Source: Candidatus Omnitrophota bacterium (GTDB lineage: Bacteria; Omnitrophota; Gorgyraeia; Gygaellales; Profunditerraquicolaceae). Taken from it: DNA of 64,000 bases. Positions 4,168-64,000 of the stretch are shown here, piece after piece. A model generated the notes under the pieces. That model saw only the letters and a list, made by a program, of their open reading frames with translations, was not told the origin of the DNA and did no database searches. The stretch spans positions 8,053 to 72,052 of the forward strand of contig JACQXK010000021.1 in the NCBI GenBank assembly GCA_016208765.1. Direction: 5' to 3'. Every line of letters begins with the position of its first letter. Positions within the stretch are counted from its first letter, which is position 1. Made by a program: the position numbers and the translations under genes.

Positions 4168-4357
4168 AAACTATTTTCGAAATTTCCTGTGATATTTTTT
4201 CATACTGTTTTATGATTATTGAAAAAAAACCTCCGAACTTGATGAACCCTCTTTACCGAAGAAAACAACGCAAGCATTAACGCATAAAATACTTCCCTGT
4301 ATTTTAAACCTTTCAATTTTCAACCTTCGAATCAGACATTGTAGCAACCAATGAGTT

Positions 4358-4423
4358 CCTGAATGAAGAAGATGAATAAATAGATTGCGGTAAATAATAA
4401 AACTGCCGGAAACGCATCCCGGA
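4358..4423. repeat. 66-bp near-identical copy (one mismatch) of 2946..3011, the 5' coding end of gene 1393..3045. Degenerate homology extends to about 4330..4460. I read it as a pseudogene remnant of a paralogous N-terminus.
   Basis: I aligned the sequences directly: cctgaatgaagaagatgaataaatagattgcggtaaataataaaactgccggaa[g/a]cgcatcccgga. Weaker similarity continues on both flanks. Confidence 0.8.
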
Positions 4424-4616
4424 TGAAGTCAATGTTTACTTTCCTGGTCTTTAACATTATAAGATTGTTACTGTCTTTTAGTATAAATATTTTGATAGTC
4501 TTTTGGAAAGATTTAACTTTGAATAAAGATCAAGACTTGATTTTTGATGGGAAAGAAAATGCCAGCTTTCAATTTTCATTGAAATCGTGATTGTTAAACA
4601 CTCCCTATTCATTAAA

Positions 4617-6389: not shown

Positions 6390-6514
6390 GAATATCCCTC
6401 CAGAAATGTCTTGTTTTATTAGTCTAAGTTTTCATATTTTATAAATTATGTTATATTAATGCAACGTTTTTTTAGCGTAAACAACAAGCAGTTACCTGTC
6501 TTAACAAAATAATT

Positions 6515-30467: not shown

Positions 30468-32429
30468 TTAACTCGACGTTGATTTTAGACTTCTAATATT
30501 TGCGCGGGCAAGCTCATCTTCGACCAATTTTAAAAGACGCTGTCTAACTTCGGGATTTTCATTTGAGATATCATTTCTCTCATTAGGGTCGCTTCTCAGG
30601 TTAAAAAGAAGTGCTACTTTATTCTCAAGATAATATATAAGCTTGTAGTCGCCGTCCCAAACGGCTATTGTCCCTTTAGTAATCGGATAGTCGCCGATAG
30701 TACGATTCTTAATCAGTTCCATAGAGAAAATAGGCTTTGGCTCAAGCGTTTTGCCTTCAAGTAAAGGAAATAATGAGCGCCCCTCCATCCATCCCGGTAC
30801 AGGTATACCGGCAAATTCAAGGATGGTTGGAGCTATGTCTGTTTGTTCCACGGGCATATCCGTTGCATGCGTCGTTGCTTTCCATGGCGTCTTTATTATC
30901 AAAGGGACATGAACAAGTGACTCGTAGAGCTCATAATACCCATGCCCTGCAAAGCCGTGCGAAAAACTTTCACCGTGATCCGACGATAAAATAACGATCG
31001 TGTTAGACATATCTACAGTTTTCGAAAGGCGAATAAAAAATTCCTTGAACTGCTGGTCAGAATATAGCACAAACTCATCGTAGCGTCTTCTGAGGTCATC
31101 CACGTCGTTTTGCCTCTGAGGCTGGTAATTGTCATCAATTAATTTACTTTTCAATTGCTTTTCATCTGTATTAAATTTTTCTGAATTTCCAAACGTACCC
31201 AGATAAGGTTTTGGCGGCAAATACAGGGCATGTGGCGGATAAACATGAATATATGCGAAGAATGGCTTTTCGGGTCTGCGGGAAATAGTTTCAAAAAAAC
31301 GATCATAAACAATTTCGGGACGAATTGATGAAGTCAGGATCGGATGGCGAAAAAATCTCGGATTGAATAAGCTGAGCAAAGGATTATTTTCAAAGATCCA
31401 TTCTGCGACTATGTGCCTGCTCGTAAAGAAACCCGCATACTTTTCATACCACAGATTCCGGGTTATCCAGAAAGTATGCGCCCTGTCTTTTGTAGTAAAA
31501 GCGTCTTTAATTCCTAAAGTATCGGGATGTGCATTATGATTTTGCACAAAGCCATAGACAGCATAGCCGTAATCCTTCAGTATCATAGGTAAATTATTCT
31601 GATAATTATTGACCGGGTTGGACTCTGCCCGATACCATACTTTATGTGTCCATGGCATTTGACCGGTCAATAAACTCATCGTTGCGGGGGTAGTCCAATT
31701 GGATGCTGAGTATGTCCGGTTAAAAACAGTGGCGTCCCAGGCCCATTCGGTTATGAATGGTGTTGTTGGACGGTTGTACCCGTATAACTGCATATCCTCC
31801 GCTGTCAATGCATCCATGATTACCAATATTATGTTAGGACGATTTATATAATTAGTGCTATTGACCGATGCAGAATCATCATGAGAAGATTCAACCTGGG
31901 CAGAGCTTTCTCTGATTACTGATAAGGGCACAGCAATAATTAACAATAATACAAATACCCAGAGTAAAGGCGTAATACGGACATTCACTTCCATCAGTAA
32001 CTTTTCATAATTAATGTATTTATGCATCAACCTGATAAAAATCAATGCTAATGCAAGGCCGATTATTAAAGTAAAAAAATGATCCAAACCAACCGCTTCG
32101 CTTAAGGAAATGTTCAGAAAAGTTTTTTTTATGAACAATATAATTACGATAAAAGTGAACCACGTAATTATATGTTCATAACGAATGTCCTGAAAAGGCT
32201 TGGGAAGCCACTTAGACAGTCCATTTCCGCTTAACCAGAAGGTAACCGCAAGGATAATACCGAAGACAGTCCATAATAAATAGGCCAGTGAAAGTTCGGG
32301 CAAAAAATCAATAAAGCGCATATGATAGGAATAGCCATCCCATTTATAAAAAGCATCTCTGACGAATCGGAGAGAGAAAAGAATGAAAAAAAACCTCAGG
32401 GTTATAAGGAGAGTCTTTTTAGCTGTCAA
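30468..32429 (-). CDS. Membrane-anchored sulfatase superfamily protein (LtaS/EptA-like), paralog 2.
   Basis: 653 aa. The N-terminus is near-identical to paralog 1 (MTAKKTLLITLRFFFILFSLRFVRDAFYKWDGYSY). It carries NIILVIMDALTAED and SSDHGESFSHG. Confidence 0.8.
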   Translation of the reverse strand: MTAKKTLLITLRFFFILFSLRFVRDAFYKWDGYSYHMRFIDFLPELSLAYLLWTVFGIILAVTFWLSGNGLSKWLPKPFQDIRYEHIITWFTFIVIILFIKKTFLNISLSEAVGLDHFFTLIIGLALALIFIRLMHKYINYEKLLMEVNVRITPLLWVFVLLLIIAVPLSVIRESSAQVESSHDDSASVNSTNYINRPNIILVIMDALTAEDMQLYGYNRPTTPFITEWAWDATVFNRTYSASNWTTPATMSLLTGQMPWTHKVWYRAESNPVNNYQNNLPMILKDYGYAVYGFVQNHNAHPDTLGIKDAFTTKDRAHTFWITRNLWYEKYAGFFTSRHIVAEWIFENNPLLSLFNPRFFRHPILTSSIRPEIVYDRFFETISRRPEKPFFAYIHVYPPHALYLPPKPYLGTFGNSEKFNTDEKQLKSKLIDDNYQPQRQNDVDDLRRRYDEFVLYSDQQFKEFFIRLSKTVDMSNTIVILSSDHGESFSHGFAGHGYYELYESLVHVPLIIKTPWKATTHATDMPVEQTDIAPTILEFAGIPVPGWMEGRSLFPLLEGKTLEPKPIFSMELIKNRTIGDYPITKGTIAVWDGDYKLIYYLENKVALLFNLRSDPNERNDISNENPEVRQRLLKLVEDELARANIRSLKSTSS

Positions 32430-37124: not shown

Positions 37125-38777
37125 TCATTTCTGTGCTTTAAGAGAATAGATTCTAAGGCCTGACACTTTTCCGCTTAATATATCTTTATATGATATTCCC
37201 CCTGTAATTTCCCTGCACTTGGACATATACTGAGGCATTGCTGCGGCAGAATCGTTCCAGACAAGATAATAGTCAATATCATGTTTGTTCAATTCATTCT
37301 GCAGATCCTCATCGCTGATATTTTTCTTGGCTTGTCCATAATAGTTCACATTCATATCAGAATAAAACAGTATCTTCAGTGTCTCTGAAAATCTATCGTT
37401 TGAAGCGATCTTCTTCCCTGCCATCTCGCTGTACACTCGTAATGTTTTGCCAAATATTCCAAAGGCCTTATCAGCGTTTTGGGTTGCAACAACCTCCTTT
37501 ATAGGCATTAAGACAAATGATAATGCCATGAACGTCATCAATAGATTTCTTCTCGCCCCGATAAAGAATGCATTCTGAAATAATATGTTGAGTATATGTC
37601 CTCCCATTAAAAGAACCAGGATACCGTTCACCCACAGATATCTCACATTGGGAAAGACCAGAAGGTACCCTCCGCAATACAAAAGTACTGTCAGTAGCGG
37701 GTAAAGTCTGTGATCTTTGAACATCTGTAACCTGACGGGCAGAAGATAGAGCAGTATATACCCTGCAATGATAACGCCTGAAAATATCGAGAAATACGTT
37801 TCAAAGATGCCTAAAGTATAATAGACGTTTTTTGCCATAATACCTAACTGATATTTAAGATTTCCCCATGAGTCAAAGGGGCTCCATGGTTTCAGGTATG
37901 GCGTTAATAACGTAAAATCCTCCCAGATGCTTATCGCGGTATCATTAGGTGGGGGGAAAAAACCCTTGTCATAAACCGGATGCCCCATTCGTATATAATT
38001 CCTCCAACCTTCCCATCCATAATATTCATTTATCTTTGGCACCTCCGGTCCCCTGATCCGGTTGTTATAAGCTCCTGATACATCAAATGTAATTGTGTTG
38101 TATTTGCTGCTCAATGCAATCATCCACGGTGCACTAATAATGCAAAACAAAACAAATCCCAGTGCCGCATTCCGTACCACCCTTTTGTCCTTCGTTCTGT
38201 AGTAGTGAAGAATATTCAGCATTATGAAGTGCGAGATAAAGAAAGGGAACATAAAAGACTTGCCAAAATATCCGATTGCGCCTATAACACCGCACAAAAC
38301 TCCCTGGTATGCCCTTCCCGGATAATCGGCCCTGAATATAACAGCTAAATAATATATGACAGCGCATGTTATTAACAGATCTGGTATATGCTCTGTCAAT
38401 GTGAACTGCAATACAACCGGAACAGATGTAAACGAAACCACATTCCTGATATTATCGGTCATTTCAAACCTGTATGATAACAACCTCACCCCTATCAGGG
38501 TAAGCAGTCCTACAAGCAGTTTAACTATACTCAGGGAAGCTATAGCCCCGATGCCCAGCTTCAGGAACGGGATCAACAGCCAGGAGGAAAGGGGCGTAAA
38601 GCCGCCGACAACAGCATTGTGAAGATCACCCCTGATATATTTCTGGGCGATTGTGATGAAAGCGATCGTACCTGTATTTACACCGTAAACATGTATTTCA
38701 TTGTGAATTGTAAAATAGATATTCAAAACCATGTATGCGATTAAAGATAAAATGAAGTATATCTTATTTCTTTTCAT
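37125..38777 (-). CDS. Polytopic membrane protein (550 aa). Putative GT-C-like protein, function unknown.
   Basis: It has many TM helices and a C-terminal hydrophilic domain of about 130 aa. Confidence 0.45.
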   Translation of the reverse strand: MKRNKIYFILSLIAYMVLNIYFTIHNEIHVYGVNTGTIAFITIAQKYIRGDLHNAVVGGFTPLSSWLLIPFLKLGIGAIASLSIVKLLVGLLTLIGVRLLSYRFEMTDNIRNVVSFTSVPVVLQFTLTEHIPDLLITCAVIYYLAVIFRADYPGRAYQGVLCGVIGAIGYFGKSFMFPFFISHFIMLNILHYYRTKDKRVVRNAALGFVLFCIISAPWMIALSSKYNTITFDVSGAYNNRIRGPEVPKINEYYGWEGWRNYIRMGHPVYDKGFFPPPNDTAISIWEDFTLLTPYLKPWSPFDSWGNLKYQLGIMAKNVYYTLGIFETYFSIFSGVIIAGYILLYLLPVRLQMFKDHRLYPLLTVLLYCGGYLLVFPNVRYLWVNGILVLLMGGHILNILFQNAFFIGARRNLLMTFMALSFVLMPIKEVVATQNADKAFGIFGKTLRVYSEMAGKKIASNDRFSETLKILFYSDMNVNYYGQAKKNISDEDLQNELNKHDIDYYLVWNDSAAAMPQYMSKCREITGGISYKDILSGKVSGLRIYSLKAQK

Positions 38778-39555
38778 ACCTATCTCTGCCTTCCTGTTTC
38801 AGTAATGAAAAGTATTCAATATGTCTCCCCCGATAACCATCGCCGTTACCGGTCATTGTTTCCAGTCCGGGATGCACGACTATTTCAACATCTTTATCGT
38901 AGAATTTTTCTAAAATTTTTTGTAGTAACCCGGTATAATTCCCCTTACCTGCCAATGGCATTAGAATAAGGTTCTTGCAATAATTAATGTGAGCATTGTC
39001 AAGTTTCAATTTCATGACTTTTCCCATCGCATAAAGCAAAATCATTTTCGGCACTTGGGCAAAAAAGCCGAAACGCATGAGAGAGTAAAAATAGAATATC
39101 AAATATTTACCTTCCATTGTAATACAGCGTATAGAGAAAACGTCCTTTTTTTTTGCAAAAGTCACAATTGCCTTCAATATTTTGGGCACTACATGAACGT
39201 GCTGATGAGTATCAAGATGTGAAACTTTAAAACCCTTGCTTGTCAGGATGTTATATTGCCGATCGATACTATCTAATATACTACCGCTATTCATCCTCCC
39301 GGTGTAGATGAGATAAAGGAGTTTCAGTAAAGATGCCTTCTTGCTGCTTTGATTCATCCCGCCACATCCAGTCTCATGAACAAGATTTATGTGTAAGCCA
39401 GTTTCAACACGATTACTGATATCACTTGAATATCTAATTGATTCATTTGCCATCACGCTTACCTTAGACAAAATGTTTTTTTTAGATAGTTCGGATATGG
39501 CCTGATTAACTTCCGGACACATTCCATAATCATCTGCCACGATTTTACATCCCAT
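38764..39555 (-). CDS. YdjC/ChbG/HpnK-like carbohydrate deacetylase.
   Basis: The N-terminus is ADDYGMCPEVNQAI, followed by GLHINLVHETG and HLDTHQHVHV, which together are the YdjC family signature. Confidence 0.6.
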   Translation of the reverse strand: MGCKIVADDYGMCPEVNQAISELSKKNILSKVSVMANESIRYSSDISNRVETGLHINLVHETGCGGMNQSSKKASLLKLLYLIYTGRMNSGSILDSIDRQYNILTSKGFKVSHLDTHQHVHVVPKILKAIVTFAKKKDVFSIRCITMEGKYLIFYFYSLMRFGFFAQVPKMILLYAMGKVMKLKLDNAHINYCKNLILMPLAGKGNYTGLLQKILEKFYDKDVEIVVHPGLETMTGNGDGYRGRHIEYFSLLKQEGRDRYEKK

Positions 39556-39560
39556 AATAT

Positions 39561-40637
39561 TTATGGTACAAGACCAGCCTTTGTTAACTCAGAAAACAGT
39601 GTATCAGCAACTACTTGGTAACCCGCACTGTTACAATGCCCGTCTATTTTCCAGTAAAGTTTGGCTTTCTTGGAAGCCGCCTGCATCGCAGGTGTAATAT
39701 CAATAAATGGCGCCTCTTTGCTGCGGGCCCAAGCCGATAATCTTTGAGGAGGATAAGTGGAAGGCGGCGTCGCCCATGACGCATCCTGTGGAATATTAAA
39801 AAAAACTATCTTAGAGTTATTCCGGTGAGACAACTCTATCATCTTGTCGTACTCTTGTTCGATCTTTCCCCACTCCTTCTCTAAGAAACCGTTGTCTCTG
39901 TATTTTTCAGTATCGGCAACTTTTTTCAAGAAATCTTCTTTATCCCTATACCGTTGAACAACAATACGAAACAAGTGAGAATGAGAATAAAGCCAACTGC
40001 TAACCTCATTTATTTGCCCCAATTTATTCCCGGATAATAAATATCCGTCTTTTGCTACTCCTACTCCGTCAATTCCATAAAATGTATCAATTACATCATT
40101 ACGCACGAATCCGACTATAATCAGATCGGGTTTAAAGTTGAGTCCATAATGTTCAAGTAAAAGGCGCTCAGTTTCCGGATAAAAGCGGGGAATGCCCGCT
40201 TTTATAATCTCCACTTTGGGATGTTGACCACTTCTTTTATTCAACATTTGTTCTAATTTTAATAGATACGTATCTTCAAAAAAGACCCCTGCGCCGTATG
40301 TAAAACTGTCCCCCAAGCCTAAGATGCGAAAGACACCATCAGGCTTATTCACAGAATGTTCTATATCTCTGAAACCAAGGCTGTTATGCTGAAAATCAAT
40401 AGCAAATTCTCTGGAGGCGGACAGTCCTGTGAACCTGCTGAGAGGACGCGTTTTAAAACGCATGTACGGGTCCTCTACAAACCTGACCACCGGCAGAAGA
40501 GGAGCAAGATGAAGTAAACGCACAAAGCATTCAAGGGCTGCAAAGATAAAGATAACTGAAAACAGCATATAAAGAAAGAAAAACCTTATCTTACCGTGTG
40601 AGCTCTTCAACATTAAGGCTCCACTGTACAATTGCAT
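39561..40637 (-). CDS. SGNH/GDSL hydrolase-fold protein with an N-terminal TM anchor.
   Basis: Block I is ILGLGDSFTYGAGV. Block V is DGHCNSAGYQVVAD. Confidence 0.7.
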   Translation of the reverse strand: MQLYSGALMLKSSHGKIRFFFLYMLFSVIFIFAALECFVRLLHLAPLLPVVRFVEDPYMRFKTRPLSRFTGLSASREFAIDFQHNSLGFRDIEHSVNKPDGVFRILGLGDSFTYGAGVFFEDTYLLKLEQMLNKRSGQHPKVEIIKAGIPRFYPETERLLLEHYGLNFKPDLIIVGFVRNDVIDTFYGIDGVGVAKDGYLLSGNKLGQINEVSSWLYSHSHLFRIVVQRYRDKEDFLKKVADTEKYRDNGFLEKEWGKIEQEYDKMIELSHRNNSKIVFFNIPQDASWATPPSTYPPQRLSAWARSKEAPFIDITPAMQAASKKAKLYWKIDGHCNSAGYQVVADTLFSELTKAGLVP

Positions 40638-41404
40638 GTTGTTTTCATACGGTAATGCCCAGTAACTCTTTTAAAAAAAATGCGTAATAAATCAAAAGTC
40701 ATAACAAAGGTTTGTCTGATAAAATTTATAGTGCTCATCTCATGTTCATAATTAAACTCTACAGGGATGCTTGTTATTTTTTTGTTATTTACTTTTGCAC
40801 AAACTAAAACATCAACATCGAATCCAAAACCTTTAATAGTCATCTTGTCAAAAATCAGTTTAGCTGTCTCAGCGTCAAATCCTTTTAACCCGGCCTGGGT
40901 ATCCTCAATATATAAATTGGTAAATACATTTATTAGGTAGTTATAAATCCGTCCGGATGTATGTCTTATATAAATCCAAGAAAGGTTTGATGATCTTATT
41001 GTGTAAATGCTTTCCTTATGCATTCGGCTTGCTATTACAACATTGAAATTATTATTAAGCAGGTTATTAACTACATCCCTAATATTTTTAAATGAATATT
41101 GCAAATCACAATCAGTAAATACAATATACTGCCCTTCAGCAGCCTGGATACCTGTTTTGATTGCTGAACCCTTTCCGCTATTTTTGGTGTGGTTGATATA
41201 TTTTATAGAACGATTTTTATTTTCCTGTAAATAATTTTTTATTATTTTATCTGTGCTGTCAGTGCTACCGTCATTTACTATTATAATTTCACTGCTCAGA
41301 CCTGAATCAGAACAATATTCCGAAAAGCGGTTCATCGTATTACGAATAAATGACGCAGCCTGATATGTAGGCAAGATGTAAGAGATCAGAGGTTTGTTAT
41401 TCAC
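40613..41404 (-). CDS. GT2 family glycosyltransferase.
   Basis: ISYILPTYQAASF, VNDGSTDSTD and TDCDLQ (DxD) are present. 263 aa. Confidence 0.8.
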   Translation of the reverse strand: MNNKPLISYILPTYQAASFIRNTMNRFSEYCSDSGLSSEIIIVNDGSTDSTDKIIKNYLQENKNRSIKYINHTKNSGKGSAIKTGIQAAEGQYIVFTDCDLQYSFKNIRDVVNNLLNNNFNVVIASRMHKESIYTIRSSNLSWIYIRHTSGRIYNYLINVFTNLYIEDTQAGLKGFDAETAKLIFDKMTIKGFGFDVDVLVCAKVNNKKITSIPVEFNYEHEMSTINFIRQTFVMTFDLLRIFFKRVTGHYRMKTTCNCTVEP

Positions 41405-41462: not shown

Positions 41463-42578
41463 CTAACGAACTTCCAAAAACCTTTTTCTGATTTCCGGGT
41501 AAGTGAGCAATTTCTTGTAGATGGTGTCTGCTAAATAGCTGTTGCCATACTCCGAATAGTGATCTCGAAACATAACGTGCACAGGCCGTTTGACAACTTC
41601 GTCAGTTAAATCAATAAATATTATACCCCTTTTTGCCAATTCAACAGATAGAAATTTTCGCCACGGTACTTCATATGTATAATCATAGGCGGTGGGTATG
41701 TATAAGGCTACCTGGATACTCCCTTTTTCTTCTTGAGCTCTGTGCAAAGATTCGAATATTTTTAATGCGATTCGACAAATCTCTTCATCAAATCCTTTAT
41801 ATGTAATTAGTTGCAAACCTCCTTTGTTTTTTATTCTTTTCAGCAAGTCAAATACTTGCAGCTTTCTCCAGTTTCTAACAAAACGTGTTAATAGCGACAT
41901 ATTATTGCTCTGTGATTTAGGCACAGGAACATTATCAAGAACAAGGTTATTATCTACTAATCTGAAAACAGGCTTCTGATAGCTCCAGAATTTTCCTGAC
42001 ATTGCACGCCTGAAATCGTCATCTATGAACGCAAATATGTGGATGTCATGGTCCAATTTTCTGCCATCTCGCATGTACCGAAGGTAAGCCTGGTCAACAC
42101 CATAGCCCCCCTGCCCCATATTGACAGTCTCCAGCTTATTATCAATTGAAGAAAGTATCTGACACCACGTGTTGTCATTACTTACTCCATCACCCTGAGT
42201 ATGAGAATCTCCTGAACAAATAATGCGTATTTTACCCGGAGGTATATTTACAGTAAAATCTTTTGTGTTACGAAATCCCTGTGAATTAGTTTTGAAATCA
42301 CAACCGGGGCCAAACAAATCTTTAATGTTTAAATTTGGTTTACTGACCCATCCCAACATATCATCATATTGCACGTATGGCTGCTGAAAAACCTGTTGCG
42401 GGGTAAAAATATCAATAAAGAACAATGTAATGCTGGCTAAACCTTCTATAACTATGAAAATAAAAACAGTCAAAAAGAAATACGCGATAGCTGATTTAGC
42501 GATCTTTCCAACACCAAGATTCCTAAACAACCTGCTTGAAAACATACTACCTGTCACCTCCGAAAATATACTCCACAT
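41463..42578 (-). CDS. SGNH/GDSL hydrolase-fold protein with an N-terminal TM anchor.
   Basis: Block I is IICSGDSHTQGDGV. The C-terminal DHYSEYGNSYLAD is block V-like. Confidence 0.65.
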   Translation of the reverse strand: MWSIFSEVTGSMFSSRLFRNLGVGKIAKSAIAYFFLTVFIFIVIEGLASITLFFIDIFTPQQVFQQPYVQYDDMLGWVSKPNLNIKDLFGPGCDFKTNSQGFRNTKDFTVNIPPGKIRIICSGDSHTQGDGVSNDNTWCQILSSIDNKLETVNMGQGGYGVDQAYLRYMRDGRKLDHDIHIFAFIDDDFRRAMSGKFWSYQKPVFRLVDNNLVLDNVPVPKSQSNNMSLLTRFVRNWRKLQVFDLLKRIKNKGGLQLITYKGFDEEICRIALKIFESLHRAQEEKGSIQVALYIPTAYDYTYEVPWRKFLSVELAKRGIIFIDLTDEVVKRPVHVMFRDHYSEYGNSYLADTIYKKLLTYPEIRKRFLEVR

Positions 42579-43200
42579 TTTCTCCAGGGAATGCCATACT
42601 CATTGTATTGATAAAATCTTCGGCGATCGCCATGGCATCCTTGACCTTCGCTTCTGTGGTTGGTACATCAATTCTGACCATAAGCCCTACCCTTTTTTTG
42701 TTAAATAAAGAAAAATACAGCTGTTTGAATTTTTGTTCTATCCACTCATGCGCAACATTTTTATCAATAACTATCCAGTAAAAGCTCAAAAAACTTTCTC
42801 CCTCTTTTTCGGTGAAGAGAGCGTGGGCCTTTATAGTCCTACCCATAACATTAAACTCTTTGTCCTCAAGCTCTTTAATAGTATAACCTGCACTTGTAAA
42901 GCATACCTTGGGGTGATGGAAGTTCCCGGCATCCAAAATAATAAACAAAAGTTTATTCCCATGCTTATTAATATATTGATAAGCCAGGACATCGCTGATA
43001 AAATCGAAATTGCCTTCACCAGGCTGAATGTTTAATTCCCTGCTTATATCTGCTCCTGCCCAATCAGCCAGCGAAATGGGGATCCTTAACTTTGGAATAA
43101 ATCCGGCGCCTTCGTATGTTATCTTTGGAAAAGCAAAGCTTAGCGTTACAGTCAATATAAGCAGTATAACAACAATCCATTCCCTCAATTTATAATTCAT
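42547..43200 (-). CDS. EpsI-like exosortase-associated protein (N-terminal TM plus periplasmic domain).
   Basis: 217 aa with a single N-terminal TM helix. It lies immediately downstream of, and 4-nt overlapping, the exosortase gene. This arrangement is typical of the separate-EpsI form of XrtA-type systems. Confidence 0.55.
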   Translation of the reverse strand: MNYKLREWIVVILLILTVTLSFAFPKITYEGAGFIPKLRIPISLADWAGADISRELNIQPGEGNFDFISDVLAYQYINKHGNKLLFIILDAGNFHHPKVCFTSAGYTIKELEDKEFNVMGRTIKAHALFTEKEGESFLSFYWIVIDKNVAHEWIEQKFKQLYFSLFNKKRVGLMVRIDVPTTEAKVKDAMAIAEDFINTMSMAFPGENVEYIFGGDR

Positions 43201-44063
43201 ACACCCTTGCTTTTCCCCTCCAGTAAAGACTCTAATCCTATTATCCCCAATATGGTAATTACAAACACCATAATTCCGCTAAAATTATGAAAAAAACCCT
43301 GACCGGTTTCTTCGCCAAAATAAAAAGTGACCAGGCAGAGAGTTATTACCCGGATAAGATTTCCAAGCAGTGCAAAAGGGATTATAAATAAAGTAAGTAT
43401 TATTTTTTTATTTAAACTGCTTTTATTAATATATACATAGACAAGAACCAATGAAAACATAGTAATTAACGAACGAAAACCGCTGCATGGCTGTCCCATA
43501 AAAATATCATTATACCCTATAGTCAGAAGAAGCCCTTCTCTGGTAATCGGATAGTCTAAGAACCTCAGAATTTTTTCAGCTAAGAATGAAATGCCGTGAC
43601 GCATTGGCAATGTTATACTGTCTAAGATGCCCATAGGCGGTGGCACAAGAAGTAAAAGATAAAGAATAGGAAAAGATAATACCTTGACCACGTTCCATCC
43701 GTAAATATAGCTTATCAAGCCAACCAGCATAGGCACAAGAGAAAGAGTAGCAATAAATAAATAATCCTGACGCCATCCAAAGATAAACATCGATATGCCT
43801 GCAAAAAGTGTTAAAAAAGCACTAAGGCTTTTTTCCGATGTTTTTTTACCGGCAAGTTCTCTTATCTTGATACGATTGCGCCATGCCAGCCACAGAGATA
43901 TTGGAAATATGAAATACGCATGTGTGTAATCAACTGTTTCCCAACGGTTATGATAAAGTTGCCAGAGTATCGGAGAATACAGTACCGCTACCAAAATCCA
44001 TATAAAAGGATGCAGTATTTTCAGGCCAGAATGAAATGGATTGAACGTAGTTAGCTTATTCAT
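43197..44063 (-). CDS. Exosortase (Xrt family; EpsH-like transpeptidase).
   Basis: 288 aa with 8 TM helices. The active-site-type motif GQPCSGFRSL is present; its Cys codon is at 43485..43487. A conserved Arg lies in the N-terminal region (DYTHAYFIFPISLWLAWRNR). Confidence 0.75.
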   Translation of the reverse strand: MNKLTTFNPFHSGLKILHPFIWILVAVLYSPILWQLYHNRWETVDYTHAYFIFPISLWLAWRNRIKIRELAGKKTSEKSLSAFLTLFAGISMFIFGWRQDYLFIATLSLVPMLVGLISYIYGWNVVKVLSFPILYLLLLVPPPMGILDSITLPMRHGISFLAEKILRFLDYPITREGLLLTIGYNDIFMGQPCSGFRSLITMFSLVLVYVYINKSSLNKKIILTLFIIPFALLGNLIRVITLCLVTFYFGEETGQGFFHNFSGIMVFVITILGIIGLESLLEGKSKGV

Positions 44064-44962
44064 AGTTTCTTTCTAATGATGAAAAGAGCGGTCCTTGTCA
44101 GCAAGTCTTCCCGCGTATATCCTTTATTTGTTAATTCATCCTCAATCTCTCTGGTTAAAAATCTCTCCCCCTCGGTAACAGTCTGCTCCTCAATAACATT
44201 TGTATGCGTCCTGAATATTTCCCGGTATTGATTTATTGTCATTTTATTCAGGTGTATGTTTACAGGATAGTTATTCTCTCGCAAATGGTCCCAAGGCGGC
44301 ACCTTTGCTGAAGGAGACTGTTCAGGATGAAGCCATTCAAGGCAGATTCCGCCTGAGAGGCTCGGGAACAAATGTATATTAATTGTCGCGATTCCTGCAG
44401 GTTTTAATACTCGATTCACTTCCCTGACGGCTTCCTCCACATTATCTATATGCTGAAAAACGACATTTGAATAGATAAAATCAAAACTATCTGATTGAAA
44501 TGCCGTACGGGTAGCGTCCATTATCCTGGTATCAAGTTTGTCAAATGTAACTTTCTGTCCGTATTCCCTTGATAAATCCCTGAAGTATTTTTTATCAAAC
44601 AGGAAATGTCTTATCAAAGATTTTACTGCTCGTTCAAAACCATTTGTCCTGATAATCTTTAAGAATATAGGAACTGTTATTCTATAAGTAGGCACATCAA
44701 TGTCTATCCCAATAATATTAGCGCCCTCTTTATGAAAAAGAGCAACTTGTTTCGGAATCTGCCCGCATCCAATCTCAAGGATGTCCGCTGTGTTAACAGG
44801 TATGCCTACATACTTAGTTAAGTAACCCATTAATCGCTTGTGGTGAAGAATGGTGCGGGTGGCATCTGCGAATCCTTTGTTTTTATATGCGTCATACAAA
44901 TATAAAGCCGATTTAAGCTTACTGCTTATCGAAACACCTTTTTCACTCATGACTGTTTTCAT
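44060..44962 (-). CDS. Class I SAM-dependent methyltransferase.
   Basis: ILEIGCGQIP and IDIDVP motifs. 300 aa. Confidence 0.75.
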   Translation of the reverse strand: MKTVMSEKGVSISSKLKSALYLYDAYKNKGFADATRTILHHKRLMGYLTKYVGIPVNTADILEIGCGQIPKQVALFHKEGANIIGIDIDVPTYRITVPIFLKIIRTNGFERAVKSLIRHFLFDKKYFRDLSREYGQKVTFDKLDTRIMDATRTAFQSDSFDFIYSNVVFQHIDNVEEAVREVNRVLKPAGIATINIHLFPSLSGGICLEWLHPEQSPSAKVPPWDHLRENNYPVNIHLNKMTINQYREIFRTHTNVIEEQTVTEGERFLTREIEDELTNKGYTREDLLTRTALFIIRKKL

Positions 44963-45009: not shown

Positions 45010-45399
45010 TTAGAACATCACGTATATATAAGGCGGGATATCCTCTGCTCCCTGCTTCGTGCTGTGCAGTTTCCACCCCAAGCGGGCAAGTCCCTCAGCA
45101 TAAGATGCGATATCACTATCTCCCCTCTCCTGCCAAAACATTATTAATACAGATTGTAACTGCTCCGGCGTTTCATAATGCGGCAGCTCAAAATCTTGCC
45201 GCGTCAAACTGCTCTGCTTACACTGATTAAAATAAGATACTTCATCCGGTTCCGGTTTAAGAGGAAACCACTTGTTCCCCATATTGTTTATGCCGCAAAC
45301 AATTTTCTCACGAAAGAACCGGCCTGCTGCTTCTTCGTTTTCATCATCCGGACGATTTTTATCAGTCAAGTTCATATTGCTTCCTCCAATCATGATCAT
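45010..45399 (-). CDS. Hypothetical protein (129 aa).
   Basis: The ORF is open and co-directional between the methyltransferase and the carbamoyltransferase. I recognise no motif. The start is ambiguous (M1, M3 or M9). Confidence 0.4.
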   Translation of the reverse strand: MIMIGGSNMNLTDKNRPDDENEEAAGRFFREKIVCGINNMGNKWFPLKPEPDEVSYFNQCKQSSLTRQDFELPHYETPEQLQSVLIMFWQERGDSDIASYAEGLARLGWKLHSTKQGAEDIPPYIYVMF

Positions 45400-47206
45400 C
45401 TTTAAATCTGGGCTGATCCTCTTTCACAAGTATATAGCTTTCAAGCATTAACAAATCCATATCTGTCCTCATAAAACATCTATACGCATCCTGCGGAGAG
45501 CACACGATCGGCTCGCCGCGAACATTAAAAGACGTATTAACAACCAGGCCAATACCGGTCAGTTCTTTGAAAAAGCTGATCACGCGATAGAAGAAGGGAT
45601 TGTCATCCGTGCTTACGGTCTGTATGCGCGCACTGTAATCAACATGTGTGACAGCGGGAATATCGGAGCGCGGCATATTTACTACCTGAATCATATCTTC
45701 GCCAGCCTGCAAGATCTCATTTTCGTCCATCTGAATCTGATGTTCCTTCTTTACCGGAGCCACAAGAAGCATATACGGGCTCTCTGTATTTAGTTCAAAA
45801 TATTTGGATGTTTCTTCGACAATGCAGGACGGGGCGAAAGGCCGGAAGGATTCACGATATTTGATCTTGAGATTCATTACCGATTGGGTTTCCTTGCGTC
45901 GCGGATCACCAAGAATGGACCGTGCCCCCAAGGCCCTGGGTCCGTATTCCATGCGGCCGGAAAAGAAACCGACTATCTTCCCCTGAGCAAGAGCATCTGC
46001 AATAGCAGACGCTCTCTCATTAAAATCCTGAAGCTGTCTGAATGGATATCCGTGACGTTCAAGAAAAGCGCCAATCTCTGCGTCACTGTAAGCCGGACCC
46101 AGATAGCTGCCTTTTTGGCGGTCACGGTTATTTGTGCCCTTCGCCCTATGGTCATTAAAATAAACATGTGATCCCATAAGGGCCGCTCCAAGAGCTCCGC
46201 CAGCATCACCTGCGGCGGGCTGTATCCACATGTGTTCGAAAATATCTTCCGAGAGGATCTTTCCGTTGGCTACGCAATTCAGGGCGACACCTCCAGCCAG
46301 ACAGAGATTTTTCATTCCGATTTCCTTGCGGGCATAGCGGGCAATCCTGAGCATCACATCCTCGGTAACACGCTGTATTGACGCGGCAAGATTCATTTCA
46401 CGTTTTGTAATCCTGGATTCCGGCGTTCTTGGAGGTCCAAGCAAGGTATGCATCTTGTCGTTAGTCATAGCAAGACTGTCAAGGTATCCAAAATACTCAG
46501 TGTTTAGTCGGTAAGACCCGTCTTGTTTAATATCTATGAGATGCTCTCTGATAAGAGATTCAAAAACTGGCTCCCCGTATGGGGCAAGTCCCATTAATTT
46601 ATATTCCCCGGAGTTTACTTTAAATCCACAGAGATAAGTAAAAGCGCTATAAAGAAGGCCAAGGGAATGAGGATAATTGATCTCCTGCAGAAGTCCAATA
46701 TTGTTGTCGCGGCCGAAACCGATTGTAGTTGTTTGCCATTCTCCAACACCATCAACAGTAATTATGGCCGCTTCATCAAACGGCGACGGGAAAAAAGCCG
46801 ACGCCGCATGGGACATATGATGTTTTGAATACAACAGGCGGCCTCTCTTGCCTAACGACCCAATACACTTCCGCACCTCATCCTCGACCCAGAGCTTCGT
46901 GCCAAGGGTCGACCGCGCGGCCTTTTTAAACTGAACCTCACCATGTGGGCCTGCAGCTATGCAGTTTTTGATCACTCTGTCCAGTGTAAGGAGCGGATGA
47001 TCATAAAAAATGACAGCATCTATATCCTGAGGCTCAATAAGAGCTTCTTCCAGACAATAGTTGATTGCCGACTTCGGAAACCTCGGATCATGTTTCTTCC
47101 GCGAAAACCTCTCTTCCTGTGCGGCGGCAATAATCTCCCCCCCACGCACCAGAGCAGCGGCTGAATCGTGATAATAAGCGGATATTCCAAGAACTGTATG
47201 ACTCAC
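45362..47206 (-). CDS. NodU/CmcH/TobZ-family carbamoyltransferase.
   Basis: The N-terminus is VLGISAYYHDSAAALVRGGEIIAAAQEERFSRKKHDPRFP. The 614-aa two-domain architecture fits. Confidence 0.85.
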   Translation of the reverse strand: MSHTVLGISAYYHDSAAALVRGGEIIAAAQEERFSRKKHDPRFPKSAINYCLEEALIEPQDIDAVIFYDHPLLTLDRVIKNCIAAGPHGEVQFKKAARSTLGTKLWVEDEVRKCIGSLGKRGRLLYSKHHMSHAASAFFPSPFDEAAIITVDGVGEWQTTTIGFGRDNNIGLLQEINYPHSLGLLYSAFTYLCGFKVNSGEYKLMGLAPYGEPVFESLIREHLIDIKQDGSYRLNTEYFGYLDSLAMTNDKMHTLLGPPRTPESRITKREMNLAASIQRVTEDVMLRIARYARKEIGMKNLCLAGGVALNCVANGKILSEDIFEHMWIQPAAGDAGGALGAALMGSHVYFNDHRAKGTNNRDRQKGSYLGPAYSDAEIGAFLERHGYPFRQLQDFNERASAIADALAQGKIVGFFSGRMEYGPRALGARSILGDPRRKETQSVMNLKIKYRESFRPFAPSCIVEETSKYFELNTESPYMLLVAPVKKEHQIQMDENEILQAGEDMIQVVNMPRSDIPAVTHVDYSARIQTVSTDDNPFFYRVISFFKELTGIGLVVNTSFNVRGEPIVCSPQDAYRCFMRTDMDLLMLESYILVKEDQPRFKDDHDWRKQYELD

Positions 47207-48216
47207 GTCTTCAGCCCCCCAGTTTTTCCGTCTATCATAAGTTTTTCAATAGCCGGCCTCAATGAATCAGCAAGCGCCTCATGTCCCTGGGGTGTTGGAT
47301 GCACGTCGTTCTTAAATCGGAAGCCGCGCCTTTTTTCTGGTGAATAAGCCGTTAAATCAGGCAACGGATCGTGAAGAATGCATCCTGCTTCTTCTGCCAG
47401 TTCGCGGAAACGGGCCTGATAATGTCTGGGATCGCTCATACATTCAACGTAGTGATAAATCGGAATGGGCATCAGGACCACAGGTTTTGCACAACTTCGG
47501 ATCCATTCCAGCAGAATGGCCCTCATCACGCGCCATGACGAATTTTGCGGATCTTTGTATTCCGGCATCGGCTGATAACGACTCAGTCGCCGCGCCATAT
47601 TAAGAAATCCAAGCTGGTCGGCAACATTACGCAAGGTCAGAAACCTTCCGCCCCAATCTACCAGTCGTTCATCTTCCTTGGAAAGTTCAGATTCAGGAAT
47701 CGGCTCCCGCGGAACTGGGGTATTACGTAAAACCAGTTGTCCGTTATCAAATTCAAAGTACGGTTTCGCATACAACACGTCCCGCCCCTGATCGTCCTGA
47801 TAAAGACGATATCTGGAGCCAACCCTGCGAACATTTTCAACCCACACGGCGATAACCGCAGCGTTGTATTCAATATGCGCTGCGTATTCTTTAAAAATCA
47901 GATAATGCTGATCAGTCCCCGTCCCTGGGAGGGCGAAATTGAGAAACTCTAATTGTGGAATACGTTGTTCCAGTAGATCGCTGTAACGGAATTGATTGGA
48001 AACGCCGTCTCCGGCAGTGAAAGAGTCGCCGAACAAAATAACGCGGAATACGGACTCCCTCTTTTTTTCCGTAACATCATGCGTACAACGAAAGCCTTTG
48101 TTATTTGTTTGAATCAAATATCCTCCACCCTCATGCGGAACTCGAGCCTTGATTACCGGGATAAAGCGGTAACCAATAACCGGGTGATATTCAAATATCT
48201 GGCGCATTCCCAGCAT
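47203..48216 (-). CDS. SGNH/GDSL hydrolase-fold protein (no obvious TM anchor).
   Basis: Block I is ILFGDSFTAGDGV. Block V is DVHPTPQGHEALAD. Confidence 0.7.
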   Translation of the reverse strand: MLGMRQIFEYHPVIGYRFIPVIKARVPHEGGGYLIQTNNKGFRCTHDVTEKKRESVFRVILFGDSFTAGDGVSNQFRYSDLLEQRIPQLEFLNFALPGTGTDQHYLIFKEYAAHIEYNAAVIAVWVENVRRVGSRYRLYQDDQGRDVLYAKPYFEFDNGQLVLRNTPVPREPIPESELSKEDERLVDWGGRFLTLRNVADQLGFLNMARRLSRYQPMPEYKDPQNSSWRVMRAILLEWIRSCAKPVVLMPIPIYHYVECMSDPRHYQARFRELAEEAGCILHDPLPDLTAYSPEKRRGFRFKNDVHPTPQGHEALADSLRPAIEKLMIDGKTGGLKT

Positions 48217-48337: not shown

Positions 48338-49783
48338 TCATTTTGCTCCCCTTGCTAACAATACAACCGGAACGGTCTTTAATAAAATTTTAAAGTCAAG
48401 CCAGAGAGACCAATTATCAATATACTCCAAATCAAGCTTCATCCATTCAGTAAAATCAGCAATATCGCTCCTTCCGCTGATCTGCCATAAACACGTAATA
48501 CCGGGGCGCATGCTCAATTTCCTCCTCTGCCAATTATCATATTTCTCCACCTCTGATGGCAATGGGGGCCTTGGGCCGACAAGGCTCATATCCCCTTTGA
48601 ACACATTCCATAATTGCGGCAATTCATCGAGGCTGTATTTCCTTAGTAACTTCCCAATGGTTGTTATTCTTGGGTCATTAGTCATTTTAAAAACTGGCCC
48701 GTCCATTTCATTGAATTCCAAAATTTCTTTAAGTCTTGACTCCGCATCGATGACCATTGTCCTGAATTTATAAAAAGTAAATTGTCTGCCGTACACACTG
48801 CATCTTTTCTGCTTGAATAAAACCGGGCCTTCAGATGTCGACTTGATAAGAACAGCCACGAGCAGAAAAACCGGGGCAAACAATATAAGTGCAATTGAGG
48901 AGGCGGTGAAATCAAAAATCCTTTTGATGAATAAATGCTCTAACTTGTATGTCGCGCCTTCAAACGTGAGCAGCGGAAATCCATGAAGGTCTGTCTGCTT
49001 GGCCTTTAACATCTTTAACTCGAAGAAGTCAGTCGCAAGATGTATGGCCAGCCCCTCGCTTTCGCAAAAATGCATTATATCATCTATCTTGTTAAGCCAG
49101 GACCGCGGGACAATAAACACAATCTCATCAACAATGTTGTTATGGATTATGTCCGGAATATCATCAAAAACACCGAGCACCCTATACCCGTCAATTTCTT
49201 TTCCTTTTTTATTCTTATCGATATCTATGAGGCCGATAATCTTTATCCCCCACTGGGGGTTATTATCTATCAAATCAATAAATGTAGCTGCTCTTTTGCC
49301 GGTTCCAACAATTAAAATGCTCCGGAATGTGAATAATGCGCCTTTGAAACTTATGCCCATTTTACTGACATGCCTGAATATTGCAATGAAAACGATCTTC
49401 TCCGAAATTATTAAGACGGTAGAAAGAGTGAATATAATGCCTATCATTAGTCTCGTGACTTGCTCTTGCAAATGAAGTACAAACACATAGCTGCCAAATA
49501 AGACAAATCCTAAAAGAGCTGTTTTGATTGTTATGATCACGACTTCAGAGATTTGTCTCAGTCCGACTCTTTTGTACATGCCGAAGTAATACAAAAGAAG
49601 GCCCCATATAAACAGCAGGACAGGTAAAAGCCCTATATAAACATTGAGCGACAATACCTTGTAGAATCCGGTGCTTTCTATCCCGGCTCTTATAACATAG
49701 CCAATAAAAAACGAAATAGTTACTATACACAAATCGGCCGACAACAAGAATTTTCTCAATGTCCTGCTCTGCTCTTTTACCAT
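48338..49783 (-). CDS. Polyprenyl-phosphate hexose-1-phosphate transferase (WbaP/WcaJ-like bacterial sugar transferase), initiating enzyme.
   Basis: The N-terminus has 4-5 TM helices. The C-terminal region is FKFRTM...DPRIT.IGKLLRKYSLDELPQLWNVFKGDMSLVGPRP. Confidence 0.9.
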   Translation of the reverse strand: MVKEQSRTLRKFLLSADLCIVTISFFIGYVIRAGIESTGFYKVLSLNVYIGLLPVLLFIWGLLLYYFGMYKRVGLRQISEVVIITIKTALLGFVLFGSYVFVLHLQEQVTRLMIGIIFTLSTVLIISEKIVFIAIFRHVSKMGISFKGALFTFRSILIVGTGKRAATFIDLIDNNPQWGIKIIGLIDIDKNKKGKEIDGYRVLGVFDDIPDIIHNNIVDEIVFIVPRSWLNKIDDIMHFCESEGLAIHLATDFFELKMLKAKQTDLHGFPLLTFEGATYKLEHLFIKRIFDFTASSIALILFAPVFLLVAVLIKSTSEGPVLFKQKRCSVYGRQFTFYKFRTMVIDAESRLKEILEFNEMDGPVFKMTNDPRITTIGKLLRKYSLDELPQLWNVFKGDMSLVGPRPPLPSEVEKYDNWQRRKLSMRPGITCLWQISGRSDIADFTEWMKLDLEYIDNWSLWLDFKILLKTVPVVLLARGAK

Positions 49784-52854: not shown

Positions 52855-54173
52855 GTTGTTCCCCTTTCCAATTTTGAGCTTTCAGATATTTGTTTATATA
52901 TTACCATTAATCTCTGATAATGCCTTTCCTGATTCAGTTCTTCCTCATAAAATTCTCTGGCTTTTTTACCCATTTCGCCGGCCATGCCAGGATGATCCAT
53001 AAAATATTCAATTACTGAGCTCAATTCATTTGCATCTCCTGGTTGAAAGAGCAAGCCTCTTTCATGATCTCTAACAAGTTCCGGAATGCCACCAATTCTT
53101 GAACCGATCACGGGCCTGCCCAATGCGAATGCCTCTATCACTGACATGGGATTATTTTCATACCACTCCGATGGAAGTACAACTGCAAGGCTATTTCTAA
53201 TCTCCCGGTATACATCCTTACGCTTTAAGTATCCTGCAAAGTTAACATTATTGATCTGTTCCGCTTTGACTTTTTCCTGAAGCTTTTCCATCAAGGGGCC
53301 GTCCCCTATAATATTGATCCGCACCTTACTGCCCCTGTCCAAGAGGGATTTTGCAGCATCGAGAAGAGTAATCAGTCCTTTTTCCTGAGATAGTCTTCCA
53401 ATATAGGAGATTGCGTTTTTCATATTATCGCTGCAACTTTCTCCAGCAATATCATCCTGCTCATTAATATCCAAAAAATTATATAGCTGCACTATATTTT
53501 TGTTAAAGCCAGCTCCTTCAAGTTTTTCTTTAAGAAAAAGACTTGGTGTAATAAAGACATCCACGCTGTCGTATATACCAAGGATTCCATGATGAAGATA
53601 CATTTCCAGGAATGCAATAGCGCTTTTGGCAAGTGAATCTTTCACGCATCTTTTTTTAATTGCCATATAATAACTTCCTTGACGACAGGCCTCGCAAATC
53701 TTCCCTTCAGCAAACATGTAATATGAAGTGCAAACCATCTTAAAATCATGAAGCGTCATAACAACAGGTATTGCTCTTTTCTTTAATTCATGGAGAATCG
53801 AAGGGGAAATATGATAACAAATATCATGAAGATGGGCTATATCTACGGGATATCTGTCTAATAATTTGGATAGGTTTCTCCTTGCCTTTAACGAATAAAG
53901 GATTCTCCATGCGATTCTGAACTGGTTTAATATGCTGTGCTGATCAGTTAATTCCACATAAGGCACAAAATACTCTTCTGTACTACAGGAGAGGTTTTCG
54001 GGATGATGCATTGAGAAAAACAAAACATTATGACCGTGTTTTCTTAAAAGTTCTGCAGACTTTAAATACACTGTTTCCGGCCCAGCCCTGTAATAATGAT
54101 ATTTGTTAATCAGAAGAACGTTCATTTTTATGTTATCGTTATCTAAATAATCTATGCATTGGTTCCATTTCAA
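52851..54173 (-). CDS. GT4 family glycosyltransferase.
   Basis: The C-terminal region is VLPSEWYENNPMSVIEAFALGRPVIGSRIGGIPELV. The probable true start is the internal Met (MNVLLINKYHYY). Confidence 0.85.
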   Translation of the reverse strand: MKWNQCIDYLDNDNIKMNVLLINKYHYYRAGPETVYLKSAELLRKHGHNVLFFSMHHPENLSCSTEEYFVPYVELTDQHSILNQFRIAWRILYSLKARRNLSKLLDRYPVDIAHLHDICYHISPSILHELKKRAIPVVMTLHDFKMVCTSYYMFAEGKICEACRQGSYYMAIKKRCVKDSLAKSAIAFLEMYLHHGILGIYDSVDVFITPSLFLKEKLEGAGFNKNIVQLYNFLDINEQDDIAGESCSDNMKNAISYIGRLSQEKGLITLLDAAKSLLDRGSKVRINIIGDGPLMEKLQEKVKAEQINNVNFAGYLKRKDVYREIRNSLAVVLPSEWYENNPMSVIEAFALGRPVIGSRIGGIPELVRDHERGLLFQPGDANELSSVIEYFMDHPGMAGEMGKKAREFYEEELNQERHYQRLMVIYKQISESSKLERGTT

Positions 54174-54211
54174 TTAATGAAAAACCAGGTTGAAGAGATT
54201 GACTGACATGA

Positions 54212-55489: not shown

Positions 55490-55538
55490 AGCTAATTGTC
55501 TGGCACTGTAAGCAGCTCCGTTTTTCTGCTCCGTTGAT

Positions 55539-56732: not shown

Positions 56733-56776
56733 TGTCTTCCTTTCAATAAGATTTCCACCAAACTTACTTTATGTGA

Positions 56777-57661: not shown

Positions 57662-57787
57662 GCATGCCTCTCTTTGGTCAGATATATTTTGAATGGCAAT
57701 AAATTGTTATAGAGCATATGTAAGAATACCAGTCCCAGGAAACAATTTCAGCCCATCTGTCACTTTCACATTAAGAGTGTTCAACGG

Positions 57788-62836: not shown

Positions 62837-64000
62837 TCAGTCATTTTCCTTTACTTCTATTATTTGATCAGCATTAATATTTGTTAACACCGACCGCTTA
62901 CTGCTTGGCCAAACAATTTCTATTTTATCTACAACGATTGACTTGGCAAGTCCGAAATGGATAATGCTACTGTGCTGGCTGTACCCTTCCATTCCTCCTG
63001 TACTCTGCCGATATTGCATCATGTTCCCGGCATATAGTCTTATTTGAGCGCCGATTGCGTCTCTGTTACTCGTTGTTCCGAATAATTTTAATTTAAGCCA
63101 GTGGTTCATGTTACCCTTGTTTTCATACAATACGTTTGAACCCGCTTTAGCTTCATATTTATCGTCCCAAATCCTTCTACCGTTAGTTAAAAACAAATCC
63201 AGAAAACCATCATTATTGTAATCAGCATTTGTAACACTGCATCCCTTGCCGTTAAAGTCCTGTATCAAGCCTATTTTTTTAACAACATTCGTAAACGTTT
63301 TATCTCCATTGTTTTCAAAGATGATATCATTAAGATTAGCGCCCGACGGGTCATCAACAAGGAGGTAAATATCCAAGTCTCCGTCGTTATCATAATCAAA
63401 AAAAACCGCTTTATTCCCGCCCATTTCTATTCTGAATCCGGTTTTGTCTGATACGTCTATAAACTGTCCACCTCCTGTATTTTCATATAGTTTATCGAAC
63501 CCTCTGAAAATGTACGGGAATACGCTGAAGTCGTATTTCCCAATATACATCCTTGGCGGAGCAGTGATAAACAAATCATAGTCACCATCGTTGTCATAAT
63601 CACCCCATGCATACCTCAGGCCATTAAATGTCATAACCTTTTTGAACGTACCATCGCGCATGTTTCTGAAAATAGAAATCTCCCATGTATCCCTGTGCCC
63701 CCGGTTAAAAGATACTGTCAAATCCATATATCCATCATTGTCATAATCTGTCCAGCTTGCCTCGACAGGTTCATCCACAAAATCTAATCCGGCTTTAACT
63801 GTGACATCAGAAAACGTGCCATCTCCGTTATTTCTGAATAAGACGGAAGGGGCATCACTGCGTTTGCCGTTTGCCATAAATAAATCTAAAAATCCATCGT
63901 TGTCATAGTCGACCCATGAAACGGACCTTCCCCTGCCCTTCGGGTTTGTAACGCCTGCTTTTACAACAACGTTAACAAATCTACCTGTTCCGTCATTCTG
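62837..64000 (-). CDS. FG-GAP/VCBS (ASPIC-UnbV-like) repeat protein. The C-terminus is in the window; the N-terminus lies beyond the window end.
   Basis: It carries repeated NNGDGTFSDVT, DYDNDGYMDL and DYDNDGDLDI beta-propeller calcium-binding-type motifs. The frame stays open upstream of the listed Met to position 64000 (…SWVDYDNDGFLDLFMANGK…). Confidence 0.7.
   Translation of the reverse strand, partial: QNDGTGRFVNVVVKAGVTNPKGRGRSVSWVDYDNDGFLDLFMANGKRSDAPSVLFRNNGDGTFSDVTVKAGLDFVDEPVEASWTDYDNDGYMDLTVSFNRGHRDTWEISIFRNMRDGTFKKVMTFNGLRYAWGDYDNDGDYDLFITAPPRMYIGKYDFSVFPYIFRGFDKLYENTGGGQFIDVSDKTGFRIEMGGNKAVFFDYDNDGDLDIYLLVDDPSGANLNDIIFENNGDKTFTNVVKKIGLIQDFNGKGCSVTNADYNNDGFLDLFLTNGRRIWDDKYEAKAGSNVLYENKGNMNHWLKLKLFGTTSNRDAIGAQIRLYAGNMMQYRQSTGGMEGYSQHSSIIHFGLAKSIVVDKIEIVWPSSKRSVLTNINADQIIEVKEND

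Follow-up and report, generated by a model that had tools for sequence, protein, structure and literature searches.

An exosortase and EpsI gene pair in an exopolysaccharide island of a Candidatus Omnitrophota bacterium, from a widespread group without a subtype model

The 64-kb stretch of contig JACQXK010000021.1 analyzed here (hereafter, the window) comes from a Candidatus Omnitrophota bacterium and consists almost entirely of minus-strand genes for glycan biosynthesis. Among these are the genes of an exosortase (xrt) and its partner protein EpsI (epsI). A first-pass annotation of the sequence had placed such a pair at positions 42547-44063, and this span corresponds exactly to two minus-strand open reading frames (ORFs; Table 1) whose products score above the cutoffs of the respective family hidden Markov models (HMMs). 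It is quite probable that the exosortase and EpsI encoded here are functional partners, that their genes are co-transcribed with an exopolysaccharide (EPS) island of the Wzx/Wzy type, and that the substrates are encoded elsewhere in the genome.

For Xrt, the match to the Pfam family PF09721 (Exosortase_EpsH) covers residues 23-278 of 288 (E=2e-58; 198.2 bits, compared with a cutoff of 25.7), and the whole of the NCBIfam model TIGR02602 is aligned (155.8 bits; cutoff, 105.55). The exosortase signature comprises the motifs Cys-x-Gly, Asn-x-x-Arg, and His-x-x-x-Gly (Haft 2006, PMC1569441). All three are present in Xrt, as P-C193-S-G-F-R-S, G-N235-L-I-R238, and H259-N-F-S-G263, and they are invariant in all 18 sequences of an alignment of the window protein with 17 homologs (60-76% identity) from several phyla. 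The mean column identity of this alignment is about 63%. Such conservation of catalytic motifs and overall sequence across phyla argues for strong selection on Xrt. The protein with the CSGxRS motif could in principle have been misidentified, being instead a CAAX/CPBP-type intramembrane protease or another polytopic membrane protein, and an alignment to a CAAX-protease-like family had initially been named as grounds for giving up the exosortase call. No such alignment was found. PF09721 is the sole Pfam family matched at E<=0.01, with full-length coverage, so that a CAAX/CPBP protease is ruled out; with all 19 NCBIfam matches being exosortase or archaeosortase models and the three motifs in place, misidentification of any kind has a negligible probability. 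A protein identical to Xrt is deposited at NCBI as 'MAG: exosortase [Candidatus Omnitrophica bacterium]'. Simple hydropathy analysis gives six strong membrane segments; a member of the family would be expected to have some eight helices and to carry its catalytic residues close to the outer face. A sequence search of the PDB returned no chain related to Xrt or EpsI.

EpsI scores 52.4 bits with TIGR02914 (cutoff, 42.8) and 59.9 bits with PF11984/DUF3485 (E=3.6e-16; cutoff, 26.1), and these scores, together with the adjoining exosortase gene, place it in the EpsI family. For both proteins, the scores greatly exceed chance expectation. EpsI has a single N-terminal membrane helix (residues 9-27) and, after it, a soluble domain. 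With this orientation inferred, the part beyond the helix is presumably periplasmic. At the junction of the two genes, the stop codon of xrt and the start codon of epsI share the sequence ATGA, a four-base overlap. An ATGA overlap also joins the stop codon of the preceding methyltransferase gene to the start codon of xrt, and an alternative ATG of the SGNH-like gene on the other side is located at 42545, one base past the epsI stop codon. Given the ATGA overlap, the methyltransferase gene and xrt are probably translationally coupled, and xrt-epsI is probably co-translated with the EPS operon. In related loci, epsI is found directly after xrt in 67 of 70 cases, and the contigs of the remaining three end no more than 300 bases past xrt. 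The adjacency of the two genes is near-obligate across the relatives.

The location of xrt among genes for EPS biosynthesis is evident from its surroundings. Most directly, a gene for a priming polyprenyl glycosylphosphotransferase that is co-directional with xrt marks this region as an EPS assembly locus. Its product exceeds the cutoff of the generic model TIGR03025 (Table 1) and remains below that of the XrtA-specific model TIGR03013 (226.5 bits; cutoff, 393.35). The immediate neighbors of the pair, a methyltransferase gene and an SGNH-hydrolase gene, are also as first described. The SGNH-like protein does not reach the cutoff of PF13472 (17.2 bits) and is paralogous to the GDSL_2 proteins encoded at 47203-48216 (E=3e-17) and 39561-40637 (E=2e-8); the Logan gene call for this gene is 360 amino acids (aa).

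Exosortases act on PEP-CTERM proteins, and the first-pass annotation had reported that the window contains no gene for such a protein. Further searches of the window agree with this. Two regular-expression scans of six-frame ORFs of at least 40 aa, one for a PEP-like motif with a helix and a basic tail and the other for any C-terminal helix with a basic tail, found no PEP-CTERM candidate in real genes. In addition, an HMM built from 85 distinct PEP-CTERM tails in the loci of relatives was applied to stop-to-stop ORFs of at least 25 aa in the window, the edge contigs L083 and L084, and the syntenic locus L003, and no ORF scored higher than 6.3 bits (E=0.92). True PEP-CTERM tails of the relatives have scores of 20 to 80 bits, with top scores of 54-80. 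The FG-GAP/UnbV_ASPIC ORF at the right edge (62837..63877) does end in ...IIEVKEND, as had been stated. That the targets must lie elsewhere was a sound conclusion and describes the usual state of these systems: epsH nearly always has EPS genes around it, and the majority of PEP-CTERM genes form operons of one gene (Haft 2006, PMC1569441), so the lack of a substrate gene nearby is the expected state rather than an anomaly. The substrate genes of this genome are most likely scattered outside the 64-kb window.

The type of substrate is indicated by the relatives, for which PEP-CTERM ORFs within 10 kb of xrt were counted in loci binned by identity to the window Xrt. Such ORFs are present in 34 of the 49 loci with 45-62% identity (91 ORFs, often in tandem arrays) and in 8 of the 10 loci with 29-44% identity. 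Their tails are canonical (..[VT]PEP[VI]S..LFLLGG..L...R[KR]LRKK), and 5 of 10 xrt-neighboring PEP-CTERM ORFs tested independently scored above the cutoff of TIGR02595. Among the closer relatives, three PEP-CTERM genes stand in tandem directly upstream of xrt in the 76%-identical L137 (which covers the same stretch as L087), and in the 70%-identical Thermodesulfovibrio locus L013 there is one, ending VPEPISSVLFVAGGVLLAGRVYLGRKKRA, at a distance of about 3 kb from xrt. Because relatives have canonical PEP-CTERM genes adjoining xrt, the predicted substrate class of the window Xrt group is clear, namely canonical PEP-CTERM proteins. Whether the substrate genes are located beside xrt varies by lineage.

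The PEP-CTERM proteins encoded next to xrt in relatives include a small family (Table 1), most members of which are about 155-190 aa long with a conserved N-terminal domain (..TPWLYL.LP..W..W.V.A.Y..). No member has a Pfam family on record. A profile search with this family found only 88 matches in a collection of 5.8 billion proteins, and where these are named, they are mostly annotated as hypothetical. In the Brocadiia (anammox) loci, all nine have a PEP-CTERM ORF. Each has one very small ORF upstream of xrt (stop-to-stop 48-96 aa; the six that were read have 73-96 aa), which in four loci is no more than about 400 bases from xrt and in others is up to 3 kb away. These small ORFs are made up of a signal peptide, a short linker rich in Gly and Pro, and a PEP-CTERM signal with an unusual extension of about 10-20 residues past the basic cluster.

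An alternative explanation for the missing substrate gene is that this exosortase is an orphan. In this case the genome would have no PEP-CTERM proteins, and the pair would act on a non-canonical signal or in polysaccharide anchoring, or would be a carried-along remnant. Several of the results that favor this explanation also weigh against a functional pair with scattered substrates. Neither the window nor the adjoining 5 kb past its right edge (L083) was found to contain a PEP-CTERM gene; among loci with 63-70% identity, only 1 of 16 has a PEP-CTERM ORF within 10 kb of xrt; and none of the 88 members of the xrt-adjacent PEP-CTERM family is attributable to this genome. Furthermore, many exosortase-containing genomes have no TIGR02595 matches according to a 2025 preprint. 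The same report makes the earlier proposition that the exosortase call fails in a genome without PEP-CTERM genes too strict. Set against the orphan explanation are the catalytic motifs and the sequence identity that are kept across phyla, the canonical PEP-CTERM genes close to xrt in relatives at 76% and 70% identity, and the fact that scattered substrate genes are the norm (PMC1569441). An orphan exosortase is for these reasons considered unlikely. A functional pair with scattered substrates has further points to contend with. PEP-CTERM genes are absent within 10 kb of xrt in L003, which is 77% identical and syntenic with the window, and in L086 (73%), and the presence of substrates in this genome is itself inferred. 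An AlphaFold2 model of Xrt based on the 18-sequence alignment is all-helical with a mean predicted local distance difference test (pLDDT) score of 68.7. Near residues 177-196, a stretch that contains the catalytic Cys, the score is below 50, so the model is too poor at the active site for checking the geometry of the catalytic residues.

Classification by HMM, which had been proposed for naming the exosortase subtype, upheld the family call and provided no subtype name. None of the named subtype models (XrtA to XrtZ) reached its cutoff with the window Xrt. The best scores, both with full-length alignments, were obtained for XrtV (NF035943; 207.8 bits, below 313) and XrtB (TIGR03113; 203.0 bits, below 275), followed by XrtA (TIGR03109; 153.7 bits, below 208); scores for the other subtype models were much lower. 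Similarly, EpsI had 63 bits with the type B model (NF045609; cutoff, 220) and 52.2 bits with the type V model (NF045608; cutoff, 228). Seven relatives were also below every subtype cutoff. Five of these are 50-70% identical to the window Xrt (two Omnitrophota, Brocadia, Planctomycetia, and Thermodesulfovibrio) and two are 33-34% identical (Geobacteraceae and Planctomycetia); the relatives tested with the XrtV model scored 182-199 bits. Judged by these scores, the window Xrt group is a coherent, separate, and unnamed group that lacks an NCBIfam subtype model of its own.

More than 700 Xrt homologs were found in the database at E<=1e-10, and the 120 listed among them span 63-77% identity. A scan of species-representative genomes found 77 related xrt loci. 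With lineages taken from the labels of the records, identity to the window Xrt is 63-70% in Nitrospirota/Thermodesulfovibrionia, 45-62% in Omnitrophota, 47-62% in Brocadiia and other Planctomycetota, and 30-35% in a distant set. The window Xrt, which has an Omnitrophica label at NCBI, is therefore closer to its homologs in Nitrospirota/Thermodesulfovibrionia than to those of the other Omnitrophota representatives. This closeness to Nitrospirota points to horizontal transfer of xrt-epsI, a lineage that has not been sampled, or a problem with binning. In the complete Nitrospiraceae chromosome CP070788.1 (L002/L006), whose exosortase shows 66% identity, the xrt-epsI pair is outside any EPS locus, and genes for a sigma-54-dependent response regulator and a HAMP/HisKA kinase (282-1631 and 5506-7227) are located a few kb from the pair. 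This regulator and kinase are reminiscent of PrsR and PrsK of PEP-CTERM systems.

Among the characterized systems, the XrtA/EpsH-EpsI type (the eps cluster of Methylobacillus sp. 12S; Haft 2006; the floc systems of Zoogloea and Aquincola) has much in common with the window. In both, a separate EpsI gene is directly downstream of the exosortase gene, and the operon that contains the pair serves EPS biosynthesis and also encodes a priming sugar transferase, GT4 enzymes, and a deacetylase. The two share the Cys/Arg/His motifs, and the substrates are canonical PEP-CTERM proteins (here, those of the relatives) with genes that are usually located elsewhere in the genome. However, the window Xrt is below the XrtA cutoff, the priming transferase is of the generic TIGR03025 type and not the XrtA-associated TIGR03013 type, and the hosts are Omnitrophota, Nitrospirota, and Brocadiia rather than Proteobacteria. 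Histidine-kinase, response-regulator, and TPR families are absent from the Pfam matches of the window ORFs, which leaves no candidates for PrsK, PrsR, or PrsT, with the PrsK/R/T models themselves not run. Exosortases V and B both have a stand-alone, dedicated EpsI partner, as found here, but the window Xrt and EpsI are well below the curated cutoffs of these types, and every exosortase of the group that was tested, from four lineages, falls short in the same way. Cyanoexosortase B (CrtB) of Nostoc punctiforme is likewise encoded in a polysaccharide locus of the Wzx/Wzy type, with the gene for an associated protein directly downstream, but its sequence relationship to the window Xrt is distant (54 bits with TIGR04156; cutoff, 300) and its partner protein is a different one. 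Literature searches found nothing relevant on XrtV/exosortase V, only passing mentions of exosortase B, and nothing useful linking exosortases with Omnitrophota.

Beyond the genes flanking the pair (Table 1), the island encodes a large set of glycan-related enzymes. The glycosyltransferases include two GT4, one GT9, further GT2, and a STELLO-like glycosyltransferase, as well as PMT_2 (GT-C) proteins, three of which are above the family cutoff and two of which are weak matches. There are also two sulfatase-family paralogs, a sulfotransferase, a deacetylase, an Acyl_transf_3 protein, two DegT aminotransferases, an NDP-hexose (nucleoside diphosphate hexose) 2,3-dehydratase, an FdtA-like protein, several methyltransferases, and a Wzx-like flippase. 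Two Logan contigs show the island extending past the right edge, where they encode the full FG-GAP/UnbV_ASPIC protein (536 aa), a further PMT_2 protein, and a Wzy_C protein.

Table 1. Positions of the xrt-epsI pair, genes around it, and related features in the window and in other loci (L numbers)
Feature	Position	Strand	Remarks
Priming polyprenyl glycosylphosphotransferase	48338..49783	-	TIGR03025, 423.7 bits (cutoff, 295.55); PF02397, E=1e-70
GDSL_2 hydrolase	47203-48216	-	
Carbamoyltransferase	45362-47206	-	
ORF, 129 aa	45010-45399	-	No family match; between the carbamoyltransferase and methyltransferase genes
Class I S-adenosylmethionine (SAM) methyltransferase	44060..44962	-	PF08241, E=1.3e-15; directly upstream of xrt
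xrt, exosortase (EpsH/Xrt family)	43197..44063	-	288 aa; PF09721 and TIGR02602
epsI, EpsI (DUF3485)	42547..43200	-	217 aa; TIGR02914 and PF11984
SGNH/GDSL-like protein	41463..42578	-	Directly downstream of epsI; GDS motif
GT2	40613-41404	-	
GDSL_2	39561-40637	-	
YdjC	38764-39555	-	
PMT_2 (weak)	37125-38777	-	
Duplicated pairs in the island	25602-27578 and 30468-32429; 17415-18962 and 24064-25560		Example pairs
xrt-adjacent PEP-CTERM family members	L137 1674-3576; L087 2-1008; L042, L040, L049, L055, L114		
Small anammox PEP-CTERM ORFs	L015 2608-2859; L016 1080-1334; L017 9404-9691; L020 9642-9860; L026 6634-6903; L032 7269-7544		

Several other features of the island were observed. Parts of it are duplicated internally, with 57% identity for a pair of sulfatase-family proteins and 43% for a pair of PMT_2 GT-C proteins. 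Three large proteins (490-598 aa; 4617-6389, 8265-9737, and 22233-24029) share 36-40% identity with one another and have no Pfam family. There are nine GT2 genes in the window, several of which adjoin a GT-C gene. The 129-aa ORF overlaps the end of the carbamoyltransferase gene by 38 bases, and its Logan gene call is 121 aa. The G+C content is uneven, being 0.31 at 4-6 kb (4001-6000), 0.48 at 46-48 kb (46001-48000; carbamoyltransferase and GDSL genes), and 0.46 at 54-58 kb (54001-58000; aminotransferase and sulfotransferase genes). This variation suggests that segments of differing origin were put together to form the island. The widest gap between minus-strand ORFs of at least 100 aa in the island (about 1 kb; 55739-56776) holds only one plus-strand ORF, of 100 aa and without a family match, and could represent the boundary of an operon or a promoter region. 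Finally, the sole plus-strand gene pair of the window (6515-8243), a GT2 gene followed by that of the STELLO-like glycosyltransferase, runs opposite to the direction of the island.

A mechanism for the window pair can be proposed from the established PEP-CTERM/exosortase model (Haft 2006, PMC1569441) and from the genetics of CrtB in N. punctiforme, which ties this exosortase to PEP-CTERM export and to adhesion of polysaccharide to the cell; deletion of crtB alters the PEP-CTERM exoproteome (PMC12188702). PEP-CTERM proteins, with a C-terminal PEP motif, membrane helix, and basic tail, would be exported via Sec and retained in the inner membrane through their C-terminal helix. They would be recognized at the outer face of this membrane and cleaved by the nucleophile Cys193, with Arg238 and His259 assisting. 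The cleaved proteins may then be released, or passed to an acceptor, and would join the polysaccharide matrix made by the island.

The first-pass annotation went further and suggested that the GT-C enzymes of the island glycosylate PEP-CTERM proteins during sorting. Under this hypothesis, the PMT_2-type enzymes would act on these proteins in the periplasm, and the island would be a combined system for protein glycosylation and sorting. Glycosylation of PEP-CTERM proteins had already been raised in 2006 on account of the enrichment of PEP-CTERM proteins in Ser, Thr, and Asn (PMC1569441), and possible glycosylation is also mentioned in the CrtB paper (PMC12188702). In addition to the three PMT_2 proteins above the cutoff and the two weak ones in the window, Pfam matches indicate that the close relatives L003 and L137 have PMT_2 genes no more than 10 kb from xrt, and L086 has a tblastn homolog of a window PMT_2 protein. 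However, the evidence is one of co-location. Of the 79 related loci that span at least 10 kb, only 2 have homologs of the window GT-C proteins within 10 kb of xrt by tblastn (E<1e-8), a search that would miss very divergent GT-C genes such as the one in L137. The link is therefore confined to one lineage, and GT-C/xrt linkage as a general feature of the group was rejected. The GT2 genes that adjoin several of the GT-C genes can be read as forming pairs that fit the decoration of polysaccharide side chains equally well, and the window has no candidate acceptor protein. Glycosylation of sorted proteins by the island is accordingly regarded as improbable. A similarly low probability is given to a broader proposal, in which the exosortase-EpsI group of Omnitrophota, Nitrospirota, and Brocadiia is a distinct type that deserves a name and, in the lineage of the window, has also been split from its PEP-CTERM genes and set in an island rich in GT-C and sulfatase genes, where it would attach sorted proteins covalently to the island glycan or couple glycosylation to sorting.

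The xrt-epsI pair of the window, read as a functional exosortase and its partner, is an ordinary, textbook case of an exosortase and EpsI in an EPS locus, an association that has been known since 2006. A modest addition is its membership in a large and strongly conserved exosortase group that has no NCBIfam subtype model and is widespread in Omnitrophota, Nitrospirota/Thermodesulfovibrionia, and Brocadiia/Planctomycetota. Recognition of this group gives annotators a handle for naming the exosortase subtype, and the PEP-CTERM proteins encoded beside xrt are candidates for matrix proteins in studies of how anammox bacteria and Omnitrophota aggregate.

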